Assembly (NCBI GenBank): GCA_049296855.1
Contig: JBAQTF010000014.1
Span: forward strand, 1-55,159
From: Minisyncoccia bacterium
Lineage (GTDB): Bacteria; Patescibacteriota; Minisyncoccia; Phycocordibacterales; DATDWN01
Direction of reading: 5' to 3'
DNA length: 55,159 nucleotides
Numbering within the stretch: the stretch's first letter is position 1; the number at the start of each line of letters is the position of its first letter. The notes beneath the pieces are model-generated. The model did no database searches. It had not been told where the DNA came from and saw nothing but the letters and a program-made list of their open reading frames with translations. Of the stretch, positions 126 to 41,516 are shown in pieces. Both the position numbers and the translations under genes were made by a program.

Positions 126-168
126 CCCATTAGAACTTACAGTCGACAAGCGACTTACTTCTAACGGG
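126..168 (+). repeat. Short degenerate member of the CCCGTTAGA/TCTAACGGG hairpin family, followed directly by ATGAAT (169-174)
   Basis: Arms cccattagaa (126-135) and ttctaacggg (159-168) are complementary except one position. The 3' arm plus ATGAAT matches the 3' ends of the copies at 11.9 kb and 37 kb. Confidence 0.6.
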
Positions 169-4251: not shown

Positions 4252-4375
4252 AAAACTTCCAAATTTGAGACAAGGTCGCGTATAAAATTTGGAAAATCAT
4301 CTGAGGCATACGAGTAGTATGATGAAGATGTTTTTCAAATTTTAGACGATGAGATTGGCCAAATTTGGAAGTTTT
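4252..4375. repeat. Family-2 structured repeat, copy 2, with a complete outer stem
   Basis: Outer stem aaaacttccaaatttg (4252-4267) pairs with caaatttggaagtttt (4360-4375). The core 4273-4374 matches 587-688. Confidence 0.85.
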
Positions 4376-4382
4376 GGACGAC

Positions 4383-9530: not shown

Positions 9531-9586
9531 GTCCTACCACAAGAGTACTTCTTGTGTTTATAATTCGCTACGCTCATAATAAAACA
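9531..9586 (+). promoter_or_regulatory. ftsK promoter cassette: family-3 core followed by TTTATAAT and TCATAAT boxes
   Basis: gtcctaccacaagagtacttcttgtgtttataattcgctacgctcataataaaaca-ATG. About 85% identical to the recO upstream region (rc of 23248-23303). Confidence 0.6.
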
Positions 9587-11806
9587 ATGTCGAGAAAAGA
9601 CAATAAGGAAAACAAAAAAGATCGAAGAAAAGACGATAATGATGAGGGTGGAGTTGACGGATACTTACACGAGGAAACTATACGAGCTATCATAGCGGTA
9701 TTGTTTTTTGTTCTTGGAGTATTTTTAGTATTGTCTTCTGGAACACTCGACAAGGGTGGTTCTGTAGGACGTGGTGCATATAAATTATTTCATTATCTGT
9801 TCGGTATTGGATATTATCTTTTACCTGCATTGTTTTTTGTTCTGTGTGTTTCTTTCTTTAGATCACTGCATAAAAAACTAGTTCTTACACACAGTATAGG
9901 CGGACTATTATTTTTTCTATCGGGTCTATCTCTTATAAACATAACTACACCACAAGCAGGTGGGCTTATTGGCGCACAAATATCTGCTCCACTTATTATT
10001 CTATTTGATACTGCAGTGAGTGTAATCATTCTCATCGCATTAATAATAATTTCTTTTTTGGTTATGTTTGATGTCCCTCTACGTTTTGGATTCATCACTT
10101 CCCTATTTAACTCAATCTTTAAAAAGAAAAATGTCTTACCTGATGAGGAAGATATTAGCTCGGGCTTGATAATTGCAAATCCAGAACAATTAAATGATGA
10201 TAAACAAAAAGAAATACAGACATCTTTATCTACACTATCTGAACAAGCAAAAGAGTCTAGGTCGTCTAAAAAACCCTCAAACGGTCCTGACGAATTCGGT
10301 ATTAGTCCATTATTACTAAATGGCAAGGAATTTGTGCCTCCACCATTATCACTCCTTGATATTGATAAAGGTAAACCAGGAGTTGGAGATATTAAAGCTA
10401 ACTCGAATATAATAAAGAGAACTCTATCCAACTTTGGAATAAATGTTGAAATGGATGAGATATCAATCGGACCATCTATCACAAGATACGCTTTGAAACC
10501 GGCAGAAGGTATAAAATTATCTAGAATAGTTGGACTTCAAAATGATCTTTCACTCGCTCTTGCAGCACATCCATTACGTATTGAGGCTCCGATTCCAGGA
10601 AAATCACTAGTGGGTATCGAGATACCTAATAACACAAAAACGACTGTTGGTCTTGGAACTCTACTCAGTGCACTGGAGTTTCAGAACTCAGACAAGCCAC
10701 TTTTAATCTCGCTTGGTAAAGGTATATCAGGAATGTCATATTTTGCTAACTTAGCAAAAGCACCACACCTCCTTATTGCTGGTGCAACGGGGTCGGGAAA
10801 ATCCGTGACTATTCATACTGTTATTACATCGCTCTTGTATCGCAATTCTCCAGACAACTTGAAATTTATAATGGTTGATCCGAAACGTGTCGAATTAACT
10901 CTTTATAACAAAATTCCGCATCTCCTTACTCCAGTCATTACAGACGCAAAGAAAACTATTCTGGCTTTAAAATGGGCAGCAAAGGAAATGGATAGACGTT
11001 ACGATATATTACAAGCAGAAAGTCTACAAAACATTTCTTCATATCATAAAAATATCGTCGAGCCAGCAATCAAGAAGGCTATGAAAAACAAAGACGACGA
11101 ACCTATCAAAATCGAAACAATGCCTTATATTATCATCGTCATCGACGAACTGGCAGACATCATGTCGGCATATCCGAGAGAACTTGAATCAGCTATCGTT
11201 CGTCTGGCTCAAATGTCTCGTGCTGTCGGAATTCACCTTATATTATCAACTCAGCGCCCTTCGGTAAACGTTATCACTGGTCTTATAAAAGCCAACATAC
11301 CGTCCCGTATAGCCCTCCAAGTGGCCTCACAAATCGACTCTCGAACTATCCTCGACATGGGTGGAGCAGAAAAACTCCTCGGTGCTGGAGATATGCTCTA
11401 TCTATCTGGTGATATGTCACAACCCCAACGTATTCAATCTGCCTATATATCTGAGGCCGAGACAAAAAATGTGGTGAAATATCTAGTAAACAGCTATAAA
11501 GACGAAATTCCAAATGAAATAAACTTAACTGGCGAAAATCAAAAGAATAATATATTTGAAGCAACAATTGAGGATGAAAAAATGGAGGAGGATGATGACT
11601 TGTACGAAGAAGCAAAACAAACCGTCCTCGAAGCTGGAAAAGCCAGCACCTCTTATCTACAACGCAAATTAGGCATTGGATATGCACGTGCAGCACGACT
11701 TATAGATATTTTAGAGGAACGTGGAATAATCGGTCCTGGTTCTGGGGCAAAACCACGAGAAGTAATGGGAAGAAGTAGCGCACCGACCGAAGAAACTGTA
11801 GAGTAG
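9587..11806 (+). CDS. ftsK: DNA translocase FtsK/SpoIIIE
   Basis: N-terminal TM helices, Walker A GATGSGKS, VIDELADIM, and a C-terminal gamma wHTH (SYLQRKLGIGYARAARLIDILEERGI). The start is taken at ATG 9587 (MSRKD) rather than GTG 9554. Confidence 0.9.
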   Translation: MSRKDNKENKKDRRKDDNDEGGVDGYLHEETIRAIIAVLFFVLGVFLVLSSGTLDKGGSVGRGAYKLFHYLFGIGYYLLPALFFVLCVSFFRSLHKKLVLTHSIGGLLFFLSGLSLINITTPQAGGLIGAQISAPLIILFDTAVSVIILIALIIISFLVMFDVPLRFGFITSLFNSIFKKKNVLPDEEDISSGLIIANPEQLNDDKQKEIQTSLSTLSEQAKESRSSKKPSNGPDEFGISPLLLNGKEFVPPPLSLLDIDKGKPGVGDIKANSNIIKRTLSNFGINVEMDEISIGPSITRYALKPAEGIKLSRIVGLQNDLSLALAAHPLRIEAPIPGKSLVGIEIPNNTKTTVGLGTLLSALEFQNSDKPLLISLGKGISGMSYFANLAKAPHLLIAGATGSGKSVTIHTVITSLLYRNSPDNLKFIMVDPKRVELTLYNKIPHLLTPVITDAKKTILALKWAAKEMDRRYDILQAESLQNISSYHKNIVEPAIKKAMKNKDDEPIKIETMPYIIIVIDELADIMSAYPRELESAIVRLAQMSRAVGIHLILSTQRPSVNVITGLIKANIPSRIALQVASQIDSRTILDMGGAEKLLGAGDMLYLSGDMSQPQRIQSAYISEAETKNVVKYLVNSYKDEIPNEINLTGENQKNNIFEATIEDEKMEEDDDLYEEAKQTVLEAGKASTSYLQRKLGIGYARAARLIDILEERGIIGPGSGAKPREVMGRSSAPTEETVE

Positions 11807-11810
11807 TGTC

Positions 11811-11939
11811 ATGAATCCCGTTAGAGACCGCGGTCACGACGAGATGTGGTAAGCTGGCTTATAAAATATATGACGGTCGACTATATAAAAATTAATTTAC
11901 TGGAAGCGACTACCGCGACCTGTCTCTAACGGGATGAAT
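11811..11939 (+). repeat. CCCGTTAGA-family hairpin element flanked by direct ATGAAT repeats
   Basis: ATGAAT (11811-16), then arm cccgttagagac (11817-28), about 93 nt, arm gtctctaacggg (11922-33), then ATGAAT (11934-39), which is the start of the next CDS. Confidence 0.8.
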
Positions 11940-12284
11940 CGAAACGCCATATTCATACTCCGAATATCTCTGTTTTCTGTTTTGGGACTTATTATCGTGG
12001 GCTATAGTCTATTCCAAGCCCAGAAGTTGATTAGAGGCCCTGTTATTGATATCTACAGTCCTCAAAATGGTACCACCTTCAAGGAGACCTTGCTTGAGAT
12101 AAGTGGTAGGGCTCAAAACATCTCCTATCTCAATTTAAATGACAAACCTATATTTACAGACAAAAACGGCTATTTTAAAGAAAAAATTCTTTTGTCGCCT
12201 GGATATAACGTTATAAAACTAGATGCAAAGGATAAGTTTAAAAAATACACGGAGAAAAGACTGGAGTTAATACTGAAAGAGTAA
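11934..12284 (+). CDS. Small membrane-anchored hypothetical protein
   Basis: 116-aa ORF with an N-terminal TM helix (IFILRISLFSVLGLIIVGYSLF). Confidence 0.6.
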   Translation: MNRNAIFILRISLFSVLGLIIVGYSLFQAQKLIRGPVIDIYSPQNGTTFKETLLEISGRAQNISYLNLNDKPIFTDKNGYFKEKILLSPGYNVIKLDAKDKFKKYTEKRLELILKE

Positions 12285-12364: not shown

Positions 12365-12483
12365 AAACTTCTTACGACTCATAATTTCTTAAAACACGCA
12401 TAAATTTCCTGGTAGAAATTTTGCTCGGCTCTCCGCCTACCCGGCTCTGACGGTTTTAAAAAATTATGAGTTCGACGAAGTTT
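12365..12483. repeat. Long imperfect hairpin element upstream of recA
   Basis: aaacttcttacgactcataatttcttaaaac pairs with gttttaaaaaattatgagttcgacgaagttt. The interior contains an aaatttc-ctggta-gaaattt hairpin. Confidence 0.7.
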
Positions 12484-36530: not shown

Positions 36531-37058
36531 TCACTTCTCACCTTGCACCAAAAAAGAAACCTGTCGCTCACGGTCATGGTCAAGTTCGACGAGCATTATT
36601 TCTTGCCAACGACCTTTTAAAATTTTACCGTCTTCTACTATGAGCGAGATTGATGGATGAATCATCAGTGCCTGAGCATGGGCGTGACCGTTAATACACT
36701 CGTTGATAACTCCGTTCTCGTCTGGCTCACAGAGATGAGTATTTCTTTTGCCATTTACATTTTCCGCGTGAGCGATATCGTTGTGGCCATAATCGTGCAT
36801 TGGGTGAGCAAAATTATCTAAAACTTTTCGTAGGTCAGATGTGTAGCCCAAGACCTCTGTTGGACCGATAAGATTTTTCTCATTTTCATTTACCCAGATA
36901 CCACAAGTTGTGTGGTGTGTTTGAATGAGAATAATACCCCTCTTTATTTCTGAGTTTTTTATAGCCGTTTCAATATCAGAAGTTATAGTAATAAACTCTG
37001 TCCGATATTTAGTCTGGTATTTTTTTGTCTCGAGGTGCACTAAAAAATCTCCTTTCAT
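36531..37058 (-). CDS. YjbQ/UPF0047-family protein
   Basis: GIILIQTHHTTCGIWVNENE, 175 aa. Confidence 0.7.
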   Translation of the reverse strand: MKGDFLVHLETKKYQTKYRTEFITITSDIETAIKNSEIKRGIILIQTHHTTCGIWVNENEKNLIGPTEVLGYTSDLRKVLDNFAHPMHDYGHNDIAHAENVNGKRNTHLCEPDENGVINECINGHAHAQALMIHPSISLIVEDGKILKGRWQEIMLVELDHDRERQVSFLVQGEK

Positions 37059-37169
37059 CCCGTTAGAAATAGGAAACTTTGGTCGAGTGACTAGTTACCC
37101 TAATTGTATTATTTTGTGATAATATAACGACCATACTTACTTGTTTCCGTTATTTCTAACGGGATTCAT
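37056..37169 (-). repeat. CCCGTTAGA-family hairpin element inserted at the start of the YjbQ-like gene
   Basis: On the minus strand: ATGAAT (37169-64), cccgttagaaata (37163-51), about 80 nt, tatttctaacggg (37071-59), then ATGAAA, the CDS start at 37058. TGCTATAAT lies 8 nt upstream of the 5' ATGAAT. Confidence 0.8.
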
Positions 37170-37194: not shown

Positions 37195-37788
37195 TTAACT
37201 CTCTAGGTTTTTATACACTTGCATCCCTAGGACAGAACCGAGTATTGGCCCGAGAATATACATAATTCCTGGTGAGCCGATACCGAAAGCCACTGCGGGA
37301 TTGAGAACTCCATTTGAACCGAGGAATGTCGCGATAGTGATACCTAAAAGAAGTGAACCTCCGATAACAGCACCAGACGTATCATGTGGTGTTCTGTCGT
37401 AGATAACTGAGGCAATACCAAAAGTAAAGAAGAATGTTCCTAGAAGCTCAGCCAAACCAGTCGTCAAAGAATTACTGACCGCTATTCCAGCAGATGTACC
37501 GACTGGTCCGAGCGAAGAAGCTAGAGAAAGTGCAATCCCCGCACCAAGGAGCTGTGCAACGATGTAACCTGTCGCATCTGTAGTATTAATTTTTTTTATT
37601 GACCACGCGCCGATAGTCACAGCCGGATTGATATGACATCCTGATATGTGACCTATTGAATAAACAAAAAGTCCTAGAACTAACGCCGCTAAAACTGGTG
37701 TTGGTACAGGACAAATACCGACAATTGATAATGCAACCACCAATGTAAGAGTGAATGTCCCCAACCCTTCTGCTATATATTTTTTCAT
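37195..37788 (-). CDS. Aquaporin/MIP-family channel (short, 197 aa)
   Basis: Two NPA boxes: HINPAVTIG and LNPAVAFG. Confidence 0.9.
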   Translation of the reverse strand: MKKYIAEGLGTFTLTLVVALSIVGICPVPTPVLAALVLGLFVYSIGHISGCHINPAVTIGAWSIKKINTTDATGYIVAQLLGAGIALSLASSLGPVGTSAGIAVSNSLTTGLAELLGTFFFTFGIASVIYDRTPHDTSGAVIGGSLLLGITIATFLGSNGVLNPAVAFGIGSPGIMYILGPILGSVLGMQVYKNLES

Positions 37789-37894
37789 CCCGTTAGAAGT
37801 ACCAGTAGATTTATTAGTCTATGGTATAAAAATTAAACTAATTATAATATTATCCCGAATAAAATTTTCGACTGAAACTTCTAACGGGATTCAT
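37786..37894 (-). repeat. CCCGTTAGA-family hairpin element inserted at the start of the aquaporin gene
   Basis: On the minus strand: ATGAAT (37894-89), cccgttagaagt (37888-77), about 76 nt, acttctaacggg (37800-789), then ATGAAA, the CDS start at 37788. TAAAAT lies 7 nt upstream of the 5' ATGAAT. Confidence 0.8.
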
Positions 37895-40023: not shown

Positions 40024-40184
40024 AAGTTTTCAAAAAATGACTTTCGGGAGCATCCGCAGGTCTGAAGCTTGGATTTGTCAACGACCCGAGTAAGACGAGG
40101 GCTCTTTACAAATTCAGACCGAGGACCAGCCGAAAGCTTCGCAGGAAAGCTTGAGGTTCTCCTAAAAGCATTTTTTGAAAACTT
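40024..40184. ncRNA. GC-enriched structured region of about 160 nt closed by a perfect 16-bp stem (candidate small RNA or palindromic element)
   Basis: aagttttcaaaaaatg (40024-39) pairs with cattttttgaaaactt (40169-84). Interior helices are ggtctgaa/ttcagacc, atttgt/acaaat and ctttcgg/ccgaaag. AAGCTT occurs three times. Confidence 0.5.
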
Positions 40185-40253: not shown

Positions 40254-41516
40254 ATGAAAAAGTTTGACCCTTATGACTTCTCAAAAAAAGTGATTGATGG
40301 GGTGCCTGTGTACTACAAAAATTTACCTCTAGCACCTTGCATACACATCAATATAATTTTTAGCACGGGCTCAATTTATGACCCAAAAGGAAAAGAAGGC
40401 CTATCACATTTTTTGGAACACATGATATTTGACGGGTGTCCCTCCTTACCAAACAAAAAAGCTATAAAAGAATGGTCAAAAATCCACACTTTAAACTCTT
40501 GGAATGCATGGACCTGGTTTACAAACACCAACTACCATCTCAAATGTTTACCAGAAAAAATTGATATAGTGCTTTCTGGTATGAAAGATATGATTTTTAA
40601 TCCACTTCTTAAAGATGAGGACGTAGAACATGAACGAAGTGTTATCACTCAAGAAGCATGGGGAGTATACAAAAATGAAAAATATTTATCTTTTTGTAAG
40701 AAGACACTGGATAATGTGTACCACGGCACGGCACGGGTAAATACAACTAGTCCGCTCGGTTGGCCAGATAGTATAAAAAATATATCTCAAAAAGATGTTG
40801 CTCTGTGGCACAGAACAAACTATGGTAAAGGAAATTTCTCTATTGTCATAAGTGGAGCCATAGACAGCAAAACTTTGGAGAAAATGGGAAAATTTCTAAA
40901 AACAATTCCTCAAGCGAAATTAGAAAGGATAAAATTTGGCGAACTACAAAAACCCAAGAAAAACTTTATAACAAAAACTGGTGAGGAAATCGGCGATCCG
41001 AGAGAACAGGCAGAGATAAGTTTTGAAAGAGCAATTGCAACCAAATCAGCACCAAGTGAGGAAATACAACTTATGACAAGCTCTCTTCTTCAAGACATCT
41101 TGTATGAAAGATTGAGGACAGAAAAAGCTTTGTGTTACGGGATATCAACCGGTTCATATATACAGAAAGATTTTTTGTCTTGGACTGTCAACTTAAAAAT
41201 AAAGGAAGAAAATGTAGATGTTGTTAAAAAAGAGTTTTGGAAAGCCTTAGGAGACATAATCTCAGGAAAAGAAAAAAGCCGTTTCGATGTCCTAAAGAAA
41301 GTGCGAATAGACAGACTCAAATCAATAGAAGAAGTGACGGAAGACATAACTCAAAACGTGCTCATGAATATATTGAAATACGAAAAAATTATACAAAAAG
41401 AAAAAATGATTTTAGAAAGACAGAAAATATCTTATAAAGATGTTGTCTCCTGCCTCAAAAACGCATTCAAAAAAGAGTGGACTGTTATTGAGGTAATCCT
41501 ACCTGCGAAAAAATAA
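40254..41516 (+). CDS. M16-family (insulinase-like) zinc peptidase
   Basis: HFLEHMIF (HxxEH), 420 aa. Confidence 0.85.
   Translation: MKKFDPYDFSKKVIDGVPVYYKNLPLAPCIHINIIFSTGSIYDPKGKEGLSHFLEHMIFDGCPSLPNKKAIKEWSKIHTLNSWNAWTWFTNTNYHLKCLPEKIDIVLSGMKDMIFNPLLKDEDVEHERSVITQEAWGVYKNEKYLSFCKKTLDNVYHGTARVNTTSPLGWPDSIKNISQKDVALWHRTNYGKGNFSIVISGAIDSKTLEKMGKFLKTIPQAKLERIKFGELQKPKKNFITKTGEEIGDPREQAEISFERAIATKSAPSEEIQLMTSSLLQDILYERLRTEKALCYGISTGSYIQKDFLSWTVNLKIKEENVDVVKKEFWKALGDIISGKEKSRFDVLKKVRIDRLKSIEEVTEDITQNVLMNILKYEKIIQKEKMILERQKISYKDVVSCLKNAFKKEWTVIEVILPAKK

Follow-up and report, generated by a model that had tools for sequence, protein, structure and literature searches.

Start-codon hairpin elements in a Minisyncoccia contig are probably non-autonomous relatives of a small element encoding a GIY-YIG nuclease

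Introduction

Correia elements of Neisseria (NEMIS/CREE) are ~ 100–155 bp long, end in inverted repeats, duplicate a short stretch of target and lie dispersed next to genes with which they are co-transcribed, forming mRNA hairpins that affect expression. Rickettsia palindromic elements (RPE) are likewise small palindromic mobile repeats, adapted to translation in such a way that the gene they enter is not destroyed. Here we describe hairpin elements in a 55,159-bp stretch of DNA from a Minisyncoccia bacterium (GenBank assembly GCA_049296855.1, contig JBAQTF010000014.1, positions 1–55,159; hereafter the window), beginning with one at positions 11811–11939 that lies between two copies of ATGAAT at the start of a gene. 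These elements act most like Correia elements and RPE and share no sequence with either. Correia elements have different end sequences, duplicate TA, have no known coding parent and show no integration with start codons or reading frames; they occur in one genus, whereas the present family extends over several phyla. RPE lie in frame inside open reading frames (ORFs) and are translated within the host protein, whereas the present elements occupy start/stop junctions and appear to have a coding parent.

Other systems are similar in part. Free-standing GIY-YIG homing endonuclease genes (phage T4 seg, I-TevI) are also selfish GIY-YIG genes placed between host genes, but their products are ~ 200–250 aa long with a DNA-binding domain, they have neither terminal inverted repeats nor a duplication, and they enter one cognate site by homologous repair; here a bare 86-aa domain is found at hundreds of unrelated T-R-R-A sites. 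IS200/IS605 elements and their derivatives, the palindrome-associated transposable elements (PATEs), are very small, rely on hairpin ends and insert beside a short specific sequence, but they have no terminal inverted repeats, make no duplication and use a Y1 HUH transposase with single-strand DNA intermediates. REP/REPIN sequences with their RAYT genes are numerous short hairpins with conserved feet, single or paired, whose repeats flank a small gene for the cognate nuclease; the copies of the GIY-YIG family in phyla outside the candidate phyla radiation (CPR) resemble them most closely. In contrast, RAYTs are HUH enzymes, and REPs are species-specific, lie mostly downstream of genes and have no frame-integrated coding parent.

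Taken as a whole, the observations below are probably best explained if the window hairpins are non-autonomous deletion derivatives, or MITEs (miniature inverted-repeat transposable elements), of a ~ 275-bp element encoding a GIY-YIG protein. We found no published description of these elements in the full-text literature, a search that did not extend to subscription journals, and the family is apparently undescribed. GIY-YIG genes have been listed, without an explanation, among genes horizontally transferred from Patescibacteria (PMC12455944).

Results

An inserted hairpin between ftsK and its downstream neighbour

The segment at 11811–11939 consists of ATGAAT, CCCGTTAGAGAC, 93 nt, GTCTCTAACGGG and ATGAAT, in that order, so that the layout ATGAAT-cccgttagagac-(93 nt)-gtctctaacggg-ATGAAT described in a first-pass annotation of the window was reproduced. 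The features of this copy (copy 1) and its host site, all on the forward strand, are:

9554–11806: ftsK, the upstream neighbour; its terminal codons and stop contain TGTAGAGT
11811–11852: mini-ORF 1, MNPVRDRGHDEMW followed by a stop; its first codon is the duplicated host ATG
11812–11815 and 11935–11938: TGAA direct repeats, the putative target duplication
11816–11934: copy 1, putative MITE; T + CCCGTTAGA (11817–11825) ... TCTAACGGG (11925–11933) + A
11846–11929: mini-ORF 2, GTG start, 27 codons; its stop is the TAA inside the 3′ arm
11934–12284: host gene, encoding a 116-aa membrane-anchored protein with a Glucodextran_B-like domain; native start ATGAAT

The promoter-proximal ATG does open the mini-ORF that had been predicted from it, and the second ATG, at 11934, had correctly been taken as the true start, since 15 of 15 orthologues begin MNRNA or MSRN; ATGAAT is thus the native start of the gene. 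Mini-ORF 2 overlaps mini-ORF 1 by 7 nt and stops 4 nt upstream of the host ATG. The RNA of copy 1 folds at −43.4 kcal/mol (z = −5.8; 0 of 200 shuffles equally stable), and its stem is longer than originally given: AT in the upstream ATGA-AT is base-paired to AT in the downstream ATG, and the resulting perfect stem of at least 13 bp has its first base 4 nt past the first ATG and takes in the AU of the second.

Orthologous sites argue for insertion, as had been supposed. In four related genomes (L251, L253, L255 and L260; 78–82% aa identity), the junction between ftsK and the 116-aa gene is free of the element and comprises the ftsK stop, 2–3 nt and ATGAAT/C, so that the window has 123 bp extra:

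...TAGAAT ATGAATAGA: related genome, without element
...TAGGG ATGAACCGT: related genome, without element
...TAAGT ATGAACAGG: related genome, without element
...TAGTGTC ATGAAT (117 nt) ATGAATCGA: window, filled

A further orthologue, P0144, has an insert of ~ 130 nt at the copy 1 site and a miscalled N-terminus that ends ...ISNG-MNRNA, in which ISNG is the translation of ATC TCT AAC GGG. Close relatives (L241–L245) are identical to the window. In one of these, assembled from the same population, the break falls exactly on the left edge of copy 1, at AT|CCCGTTAGAG (L245 position 1, a contig end in SRR28011841), which could reflect repeat-induced fragmentation or polymorphism. A Zambryskibacteria-like orthologue (L256, 1408–1500) has a different 93-nt spacer between ftsK and the ATGAAT of the same gene, with inverted repeats of its own and no CCCGTTAGA arms.

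Terminal inverted repeats and a 4-bp target duplication

When one genome per species was scanned for CCCGTTAGA-N72-102-TCTAACGGG, the pattern turned up at no fewer than 120 short-element loci, all collected with exact 9-nt arms, in many CPR lineages, Omnitrophota, Desulfobacterota ("Deltaproteobacteria"), Planctomycetota and others. Numbering the six bases on either side of the element w1–w6, we found that w2–w5 form a perfect 4-nt direct repeat in 91 of the 142 MITEs listed (chance ~ 1/256) and that the terminal base pair, made up of the last left and the first right base, is T..A or C..G in 96% of copies. Because w2–w5 are repeated and the terminal bases are complementary, the element has terminal inverted repeats of 10 bp, Y-CCCGTTAGA ... 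TCTAACGGG-R, and lies within a 4-bp target duplication. Among 136 perfect duplications, TGAA was the most frequent (64), followed by TAAA (25), TGGA (15), TGAG (11) and TAGA (4); the consensus is T-R-R-A, about three-quarters begin with a stop codon, and all three full copies in the window have TGAA.

The first-pass annotation had suggested ATGAA(T) as a target preference or duplication; a 6-bp ATGAAT unit did not hold: the unit is TGAA, and ATGAAT is A + TGAA + the terminal T of the element. A 6-bp duplication was ruled out by w1 and w6, which often differ between the two sides and obey base pairing (ATGAAC|GTGAAG), and a 2-bp duplication by w5, which is duplicated whenever it varies (ATGAGT|ATGAGT). 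Pairing extends inward as well. Position 10 is Watson–Crick paired in 117 of the 121 long copies listed, with all four pair types in use, and positions 11–12 and the terminal pair covary between the ends in the same manner. This covariation fits either one protein that reads both ends or ends that pair with each other.

The first-pass annotation had also raised an IS200/IS605-type parent or a PATE, a suggestion for which the strong hairpin and the apparent target preference speak. We consider it hardly credible: IS200/IS605 elements have subterminal hairpins and no duplication, whereas here there are true terminal inverted repeats with a 4-bp duplication, and the coding relatives encode a GIY-YIG protein and not a Y1 HUH transposase or TnpB. 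An integron attC reading was rejected too; the flanks are direct repeats rather than inverted cores (RYYYAAC/GTTRRRY), and the elements are single and precede their host genes. A dif/lox-like recombination site was likewise set aside.

Copies were also found inserted next to or within one another. Two tandem MITEs are separated by exactly one 6-mer, ATTCAT (L034, 7674–7895), a second pair lies 143 nt apart (L031, 5899–6278), and in L007 (3774–4159) a MITE is nested in the GIY-YIG ORF of a coding copy.

Some loci depart from this plan. In the L121–L240 set, many non-CPR coding copies have inverted flanks (for example L142, L161, L190, L196, L218 and L228) and look as if they had a 14–15-bp inverted repeat and no duplication, and L140, L166, L212 and L213 contain REP-like arrays of short hairpins with the same feet.

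A coding element with the same ends

In L106 and L007, the same ends enclose 279–386 bp that encode a small GIY-YIG protein. A metagenome scan with the arms 245–275 nt apart gave at least 120 loci, and 81 of the 123 long elements among the matches listed contain the GIY-YIG motif M.Y.YVL.S.KD...YTG.T.DLRKRF..HN.G...STK.RGPF.LIYYEAC....DA..REKYLKSGMGKRYLKNRLKRFLSLTG, intact in 62 and interrupted in 19. This parent is ~ 265–290 bp long with one ORF, for an 86-aa GIY-YIG nuclease of the UPF0213/YhbQ type that retains the Y..Y, YxG, R, H/N and E residues of the fold. It matches Pfam GIY-YIG PF01541 with E = 2e-15 and 4e-18 (57 and 66 bits; cut-off 22.6), and the closest solved structure is that of the UPF0213 protein BH0048 (1ZG2, E = 5e-10). 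The NCBIfam model for group I intron endonucleases gave only 19–23 bits against a cut-off of 56. A homing endonuclease of the I-TevI or seg type was rejected on three grounds: the protein is a catalytic domain only, this model stays below its cut-off, and the sites lie in many unrelated genes. At 90% identity the protein family falls into at least 6,316 clusters, whose only names are "GIY-YIG nuclease family protein", "putative endonuclease" and the incorrect "excinuclease ABC subunit C".

The ORF is interlocked with both ends of the element. The codons for the C-terminus lie in the 3′ inverted repeat (CGC TTC CTA TCT CTA ACG GG, RFLSLTG), and the stop codon lies outside the element, being supplied by the first flanking bases in 49 of the 62 intact copies (GG|A TGA, GG|G TGA or GG|G TAA). 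Because TGAA overlaps ATGAA, an insertion at such a start leaves the host start codon on both sides of the element. Among the 22 ATG-flanked coding copies, the ORF shares its frame with the duplicated ATG upstream (ATG AAT CCC GTT AGA, MNPVR...) in 20 (binomial p = 3e-8), whereas coding copies with other flanks show no frame preference. It is open from the upstream ATG in 16 of the 22, six have no other Met before the domain, and in 20 the nuclease stop overlaps a long host ORF as ATGA. The arrangement can be seen within one operon (L262), where the upstream gene ends 4 nt before a 95-aa GIY-YIG ORF that itself overlaps the next gene by ATGA.

The window copies, which would have lost the nuclease gene, carry traces of this parent. 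The ends of copy 1 match it beyond the arms (CCCGTTAGAGACC... and ...CCTGTCTCTAACGGG, as in L150 and L230), the 3′ end of copy 2, GTTTCCTATTTCTAACGGG, is a remnant of the codons for ...RFLSLTG, and the mini-ORFs that begin MNPVRD..., MNPVRN... and MNPVRS... are remains of the N-terminal extension of the parent (compare L150, MNPVRDQNLMFYVYV...). The properties by which a MITE can be recognized from sequence were all found, namely size, inverted repeats, duplication, empty sites and a coding element sharing the ends. The MITE-like reading proposed earlier thus gains from conserved ends, target duplication and empty orthologous sites alike, and we think it very probable that the window copies are MITEs of a GIY-YIG-linked family.

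The enzyme of mobility

How the elements move is the least secure part of this account. UPF0213-type GIY-YIG domains are related to the structure-specific nuclease Slx1. Since the protein is a bare catalytic domain of this type, we favor recognition of paired ends or a cruciform; the GIY-YIG protein, probably recognizing the paired termini as a structure, would supply cleavage in trans. We propose tentatively, and with somewhat less than even confidence, that the ~ 275-bp element is an autonomous transposon with the bare 86-aa GIY-YIG domain as its sole enzyme, a parasite of start/stop junctions that include leaderless 5′-terminal AUGs.

Alternatively, an unlinked transposase could move the elements, and the GIY-YIG ORF would then be cargo or a passenger selfish gene. 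We know of no GIY-YIG enzyme that carries out cut-and-paste transposition, duplications of 4 bp are characteristic of DDE transposases, and no GIY-YIG gene was found within the 55-kb window, all of which would suit such a scheme. It would not explain why the ORF is interlocked with both ends, the 3′ repeat forming the C-terminus and the 5′ end setting the frame, or why the GIY-YIG ORF is the sole gene between the ends in 81 of the 123 long copies listed. In ~ 0.9 Mb of loci, a search for larger, transposase-bearing elements bounded by these ends returned only chance pairs across ordinary genes. We regard an unlinked transposase as unlikely.

Further copies in the window

The window contains three full copies and one short relic, and every full copy abuts the ATG of a gene. 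The number of full copies agrees with the first-pass annotation, and the two-arm pattern was expected 0.00 times (100 shuffles). A relaxed search of the window gave no further copies above chance. Copies 2 and 3 lie on the same strand as their host genes, with ATGAAT on the upstream and ATGAAA on the downstream side:

37058–37164, reverse strand: copy 2, putative MITE, at the start of a UPF0047/YjbQ gene (36531–37058)
37165–37168 and 37054–37057, reverse strand: copy 2 TGAA repeats, putative target duplication
37169–37137, reverse strand: copy 2 mini-ORF 1, MNPVR-type remnant
37134–37063, reverse strand: copy 2 mini-ORF 2, 23 codons, running to the TAA of the arm; begins 2 nt past the mini-ORF 1 stop
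37183–37178, reverse strand: copy 2 −10 box TATAAT, from the promoter scan
37788–37889, reverse strand: copy 3, putative MITE, at the start of a MIP/aquaporin gene (37195–37788)
37890–37893 and 37784–37787, reverse strand: copy 3 TGAA repeats, putative target duplication
37894–37850, reverse strand: copy 3 mini-ORF, the sole one; no relay ORF
37907–37902, reverse strand: copy 3 −10 box TAAAAT, from the promoter scan
126–168, forward strand: relic hairpin, 43 nt, CCCATTAGA...TCTAACGGG, then ATGAAT and a 21-codon ORF; the upstream ATGAAT is absent

The full copies are 102–119 bp long and contain ORFs of only 10–27 codons. They share their ends only and have unrelated interiors, in line with the variable interiors and conserved ends reported for them earlier, and their hairpins are highly stable (z = −5 to −5.8). 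Rfam covariance models at gathering score matched only tRNAs in the window, and by E-value the element and three full-length loci gave chance-level matches only. In a relative whose aquaporin is 73% identical (L246), the YjbQ start is free of the element and the aquaporin start holds a decayed relic, ...TAACGGG ATGAAAAAATATATAGCAGAAG, at the same site as copy 3.

Other repeats occur in the window, whose proteins have their nearest homologues in Paceibacterota, Zambryskibacteria and Parcubacteria. A second repeat family has two ~ 110-nt copies, ~ 90% identical, at 585–695 and 4270–4380, each holding the inverted repeat CGTATAAAATTTGGAAAA / TTTTTCAAATTTTAGACG and without an Rfam match at gathering score. 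An inverted repeat with 31-nt arms (84% complementary) occupies 12365–12483, between the 116-aa gene and recA. The gap between these two genes measures 217 nt in the window, 17 nt in L256 and 133–144 nt in L251 and L253, and is a further insertion/deletion polymorphism. At 40024–40184, 24-nt arms (88% complementary, 113 nt apart) adjoin tRNA-His upstream of a gene at 40254.

Preference for start codons

For site analysis each MITE was spliced out and RTGRR-flanked sites were classed with a crude ORF caller. The 64 RTGRR-flanked copies comprised 50 start-like, 7 intergenic and 7 intragenic sites, compared with 554, 1,197 and 9,735, respectively, for background RTGRR sites at the same loci. When only non-intragenic sites are counted, 88% of copies lie on starts versus 32% of the background (odds ratio 15, p = 8e-18), and the association with start codons predicted from the window is thereby upheld. 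The target motif together with selection against disrupted genes falls far short of accounting for this excess at start codons. Outside the CPR, flanks are mostly GTAAA or GTGAA, and instead of occupying starts, copies often lie where an upstream ORF stops or between genes.

The first-pass annotation had further linked the elements to leaderless genes, and this link stands as a tendency. Most genes in the window have a TGnTAnnAT-type box 5–9 nt before the ATG and no Shine-Dalgarno sequence, a leaderless layout; the 29–33 kb region is an exception, being richer in G+C (0.48 at 30–32 kb) with genes that have AGGAG-type sites. A TAnnnT box whose end lies 5–9 nt ahead of the first ATG accompanies 41% of ATG-flanked MITEs, 50% of coding copies and 8.6% of the background, such that sites with a −10 box are enriched ~ 5-fold; Shine-Dalgarno-like motifs are not enriched upstream. 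In the promoter scan, copies 2 and 3 match extended −10 promoters placed so that a transcript would begin with the first ATG; internal promoters did not exceed chance. The promoter of copy 1 is uncertain. TGTAGAGT does end 6 nt upstream of the first ATG, the spacing reported for it, but it also forms the final codons and stop of ftsK, and the TAGAGT box overlapping these codons falls below the threshold of the scan. As the gene starts 2–3 nt past the ftsK stop in orthologues that lack the element, a leaderless promoter is no more plausible here than coupling to ftsK termination.

With respect to the host gene, 42 MITEs are in sense, 19 in antisense and 21 in ambiguous orientation, and the ATG-flanked coding copies are essentially all in sense. 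The presence of MITEs both ways together with one-way coding copies suggests insertion that is blind to orientation and is followed by selection.

Translation of the downstream gene

We propose that the parent inserts at T-R-R-A and that, at an ATGAA start, the upstream duplicate would keep the host promoter, 5′ end or coupling signal and now initiate the nuclease ORF. The host start that the element borrows would often be a leaderless 5′-terminal AUG or an operon junction, and the TGA/ATG overlap downstream would return ribosomes to the host gene by termination–reinitiation. Since the duplication provides both an upstream start and a downstream TGA/ATG overlap, insertions at start codons would be tolerated and the element expressed.

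In MITEs this coupling logic may survive in part. We infer that all frames through the 3′ arm end productively, at the TAA of the arm 4 nt before the ATG, at an ATGA overlap or by read-through into the host ORF. In 22 of 62 MITEs, with 8.0 expected from shuffled interiors, the ORF opened by the first ATG extends to an end of this kind, and 45% of MITEs have an ORF of at least 20 codons with such an end versus 19% of shuffles. Copies 1 and 2 contain a two-ORF relay, in which the second ORF starts near the stop of the first and runs to the TAA of the arm; copy 3 does not. Overall, the data on expression of the downstream gene point to translational coupling. For the window copies, ribosomes might start at the first ATG and be relayed through the short ORFs to the host ATG, a mechanism that we consider possible although on balance doubtful. 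Stem processing or direct initiation on breathing RNA may contribute, and one of the two, the former of an RNase III type, would be needed for copy 3, which has no relay.

In its strict form, processing would mean that RNase III or another double-strand RNase cuts the stem and that the host gene is read from an mRNA with a short leader, the mini-ORFs being idle. Correia-element hairpins in Neisseria mRNAs are RNase III substrates, and this analogy, the perfect stem of at least 13 bp beginning 4 nt past the first ATG and the missing relay ORF of copy 3 are all in keeping with a cut. Such a cut would leave a leader with neither a Shine-Dalgarno sequence nor a 5′-terminal AUG in a mostly leaderless genome, and the excess of open frames ending at the host ATG would be left unexplained; we think this improbable as the whole answer.

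A ribosomal bypass or shunt over the hairpin onto the identical ATGAA, comparable to hopping in phage T4 gene 60 or to yeast mitochondrial "byp" sequences, is brought to mind by the identical 5–6 nt that flank a stable hairpin starting 4 nt past the first ATG. The repeat is already accounted for by target duplication, however, and the second ATG is a normal start codon; moreover, second codons differ in copies 2 and 3 (AAT versus AAA) and many MITEs keep an open frame through the element. Bypass is therefore very unlikely.

The hairpin could instead be mainly a regulatory leader of the host, a translational or RNA-stability switch retained for its function and not as the inert remains of a mobile element. 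The stability of the window hairpins would suit this, as would the occupation of the aquaporin site in two species at 73% aa identity. RNA folds of the sense strand are also more stable than those of the antisense strand, by a mean of 1.5 kcal/mol (p = 0.017), with 223 versus 159 G-U pairs, an asymmetry that lends weak support to some RNA-level constraint; the difference is small and could stem from base composition. Against a leader function, the host genes are mutually unrelated, the corresponding sites of close relatives are empty, both orientations occur, interiors are not conserved and there is no Rfam match. We judge this quite unlikely.

Discussion

Several observations weigh against derivation of the window hairpins from a GIY-YIG transposon that exploits start codons. 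The start-codon statistics depend on a crude ORF caller, and the conservation of the arms is partly a matter of construction because exact 9-nt arms were used for collection. About a quarter of the long copies listed, mostly from non-CPR phyla, have inverted flanks (xTTTAC|GTRAAx) and fall outside the model of a 4-bp duplication. MITEs in both orientations are ill-suited to a leader function that depends on orientation. The first mini-ORF stops early in all three window copies, and in copy 3 no relay ORF takes over. As to the enzyme, we know of no strand-transfer activity for an 86-aa GIY-YIG domain, and since there is also no separate DNA-binding domain, another enzyme could move the elements.

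Signs of recent movement are lacking too. A search for coding copies that are nearly identical yet lie at different sites gave no convincing case; P0342 occurs on 103 contigs but was rejected as a multi-site copy because it represents one locus in many samples. As such copies are missing and the window copies have nothing but their ends in common, recent activity is not indicated, and some MITEs may be former coding copies that decayed where they stood. Viral contigs yielded only 2 long and 10 short copies. From the absence of near-identical copies and the very few viral ones, the family gives an impression of age and diversity, and not of recent activity, in the genomes sampled.

For genome analysis, if this reading holds, element insertions mislead gene callers, as in the N-terminally extended call P0144, and they also break assemblies. 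A minimal nuclease recognizing a defined hairpin or junction could interest biochemists. If our account is correct, the at least 6,316 clusters now annotated only as "GIY-YIG nuclease family protein" would represent a new class of mobile DNA in bacteria, one that abounds in the CPR, in Omnitrophota and in further phyla of groundwater and sediment. It would be a parasite design tuned to translation, in which duplication rebuilds an upstream start and a downstream stop/start overlap and the insertion is tolerated, and its copies would offer natural test cases for leaderless initiation, termination–reinitiation and the passage of ribosomes through very stable hairpins. Were the ~ 275-bp element also autonomous, no known protein-coding mobile element would be smaller, and it would constitute the first class of prokaryotic DNA transposons based on GIY-YIG chemistry.

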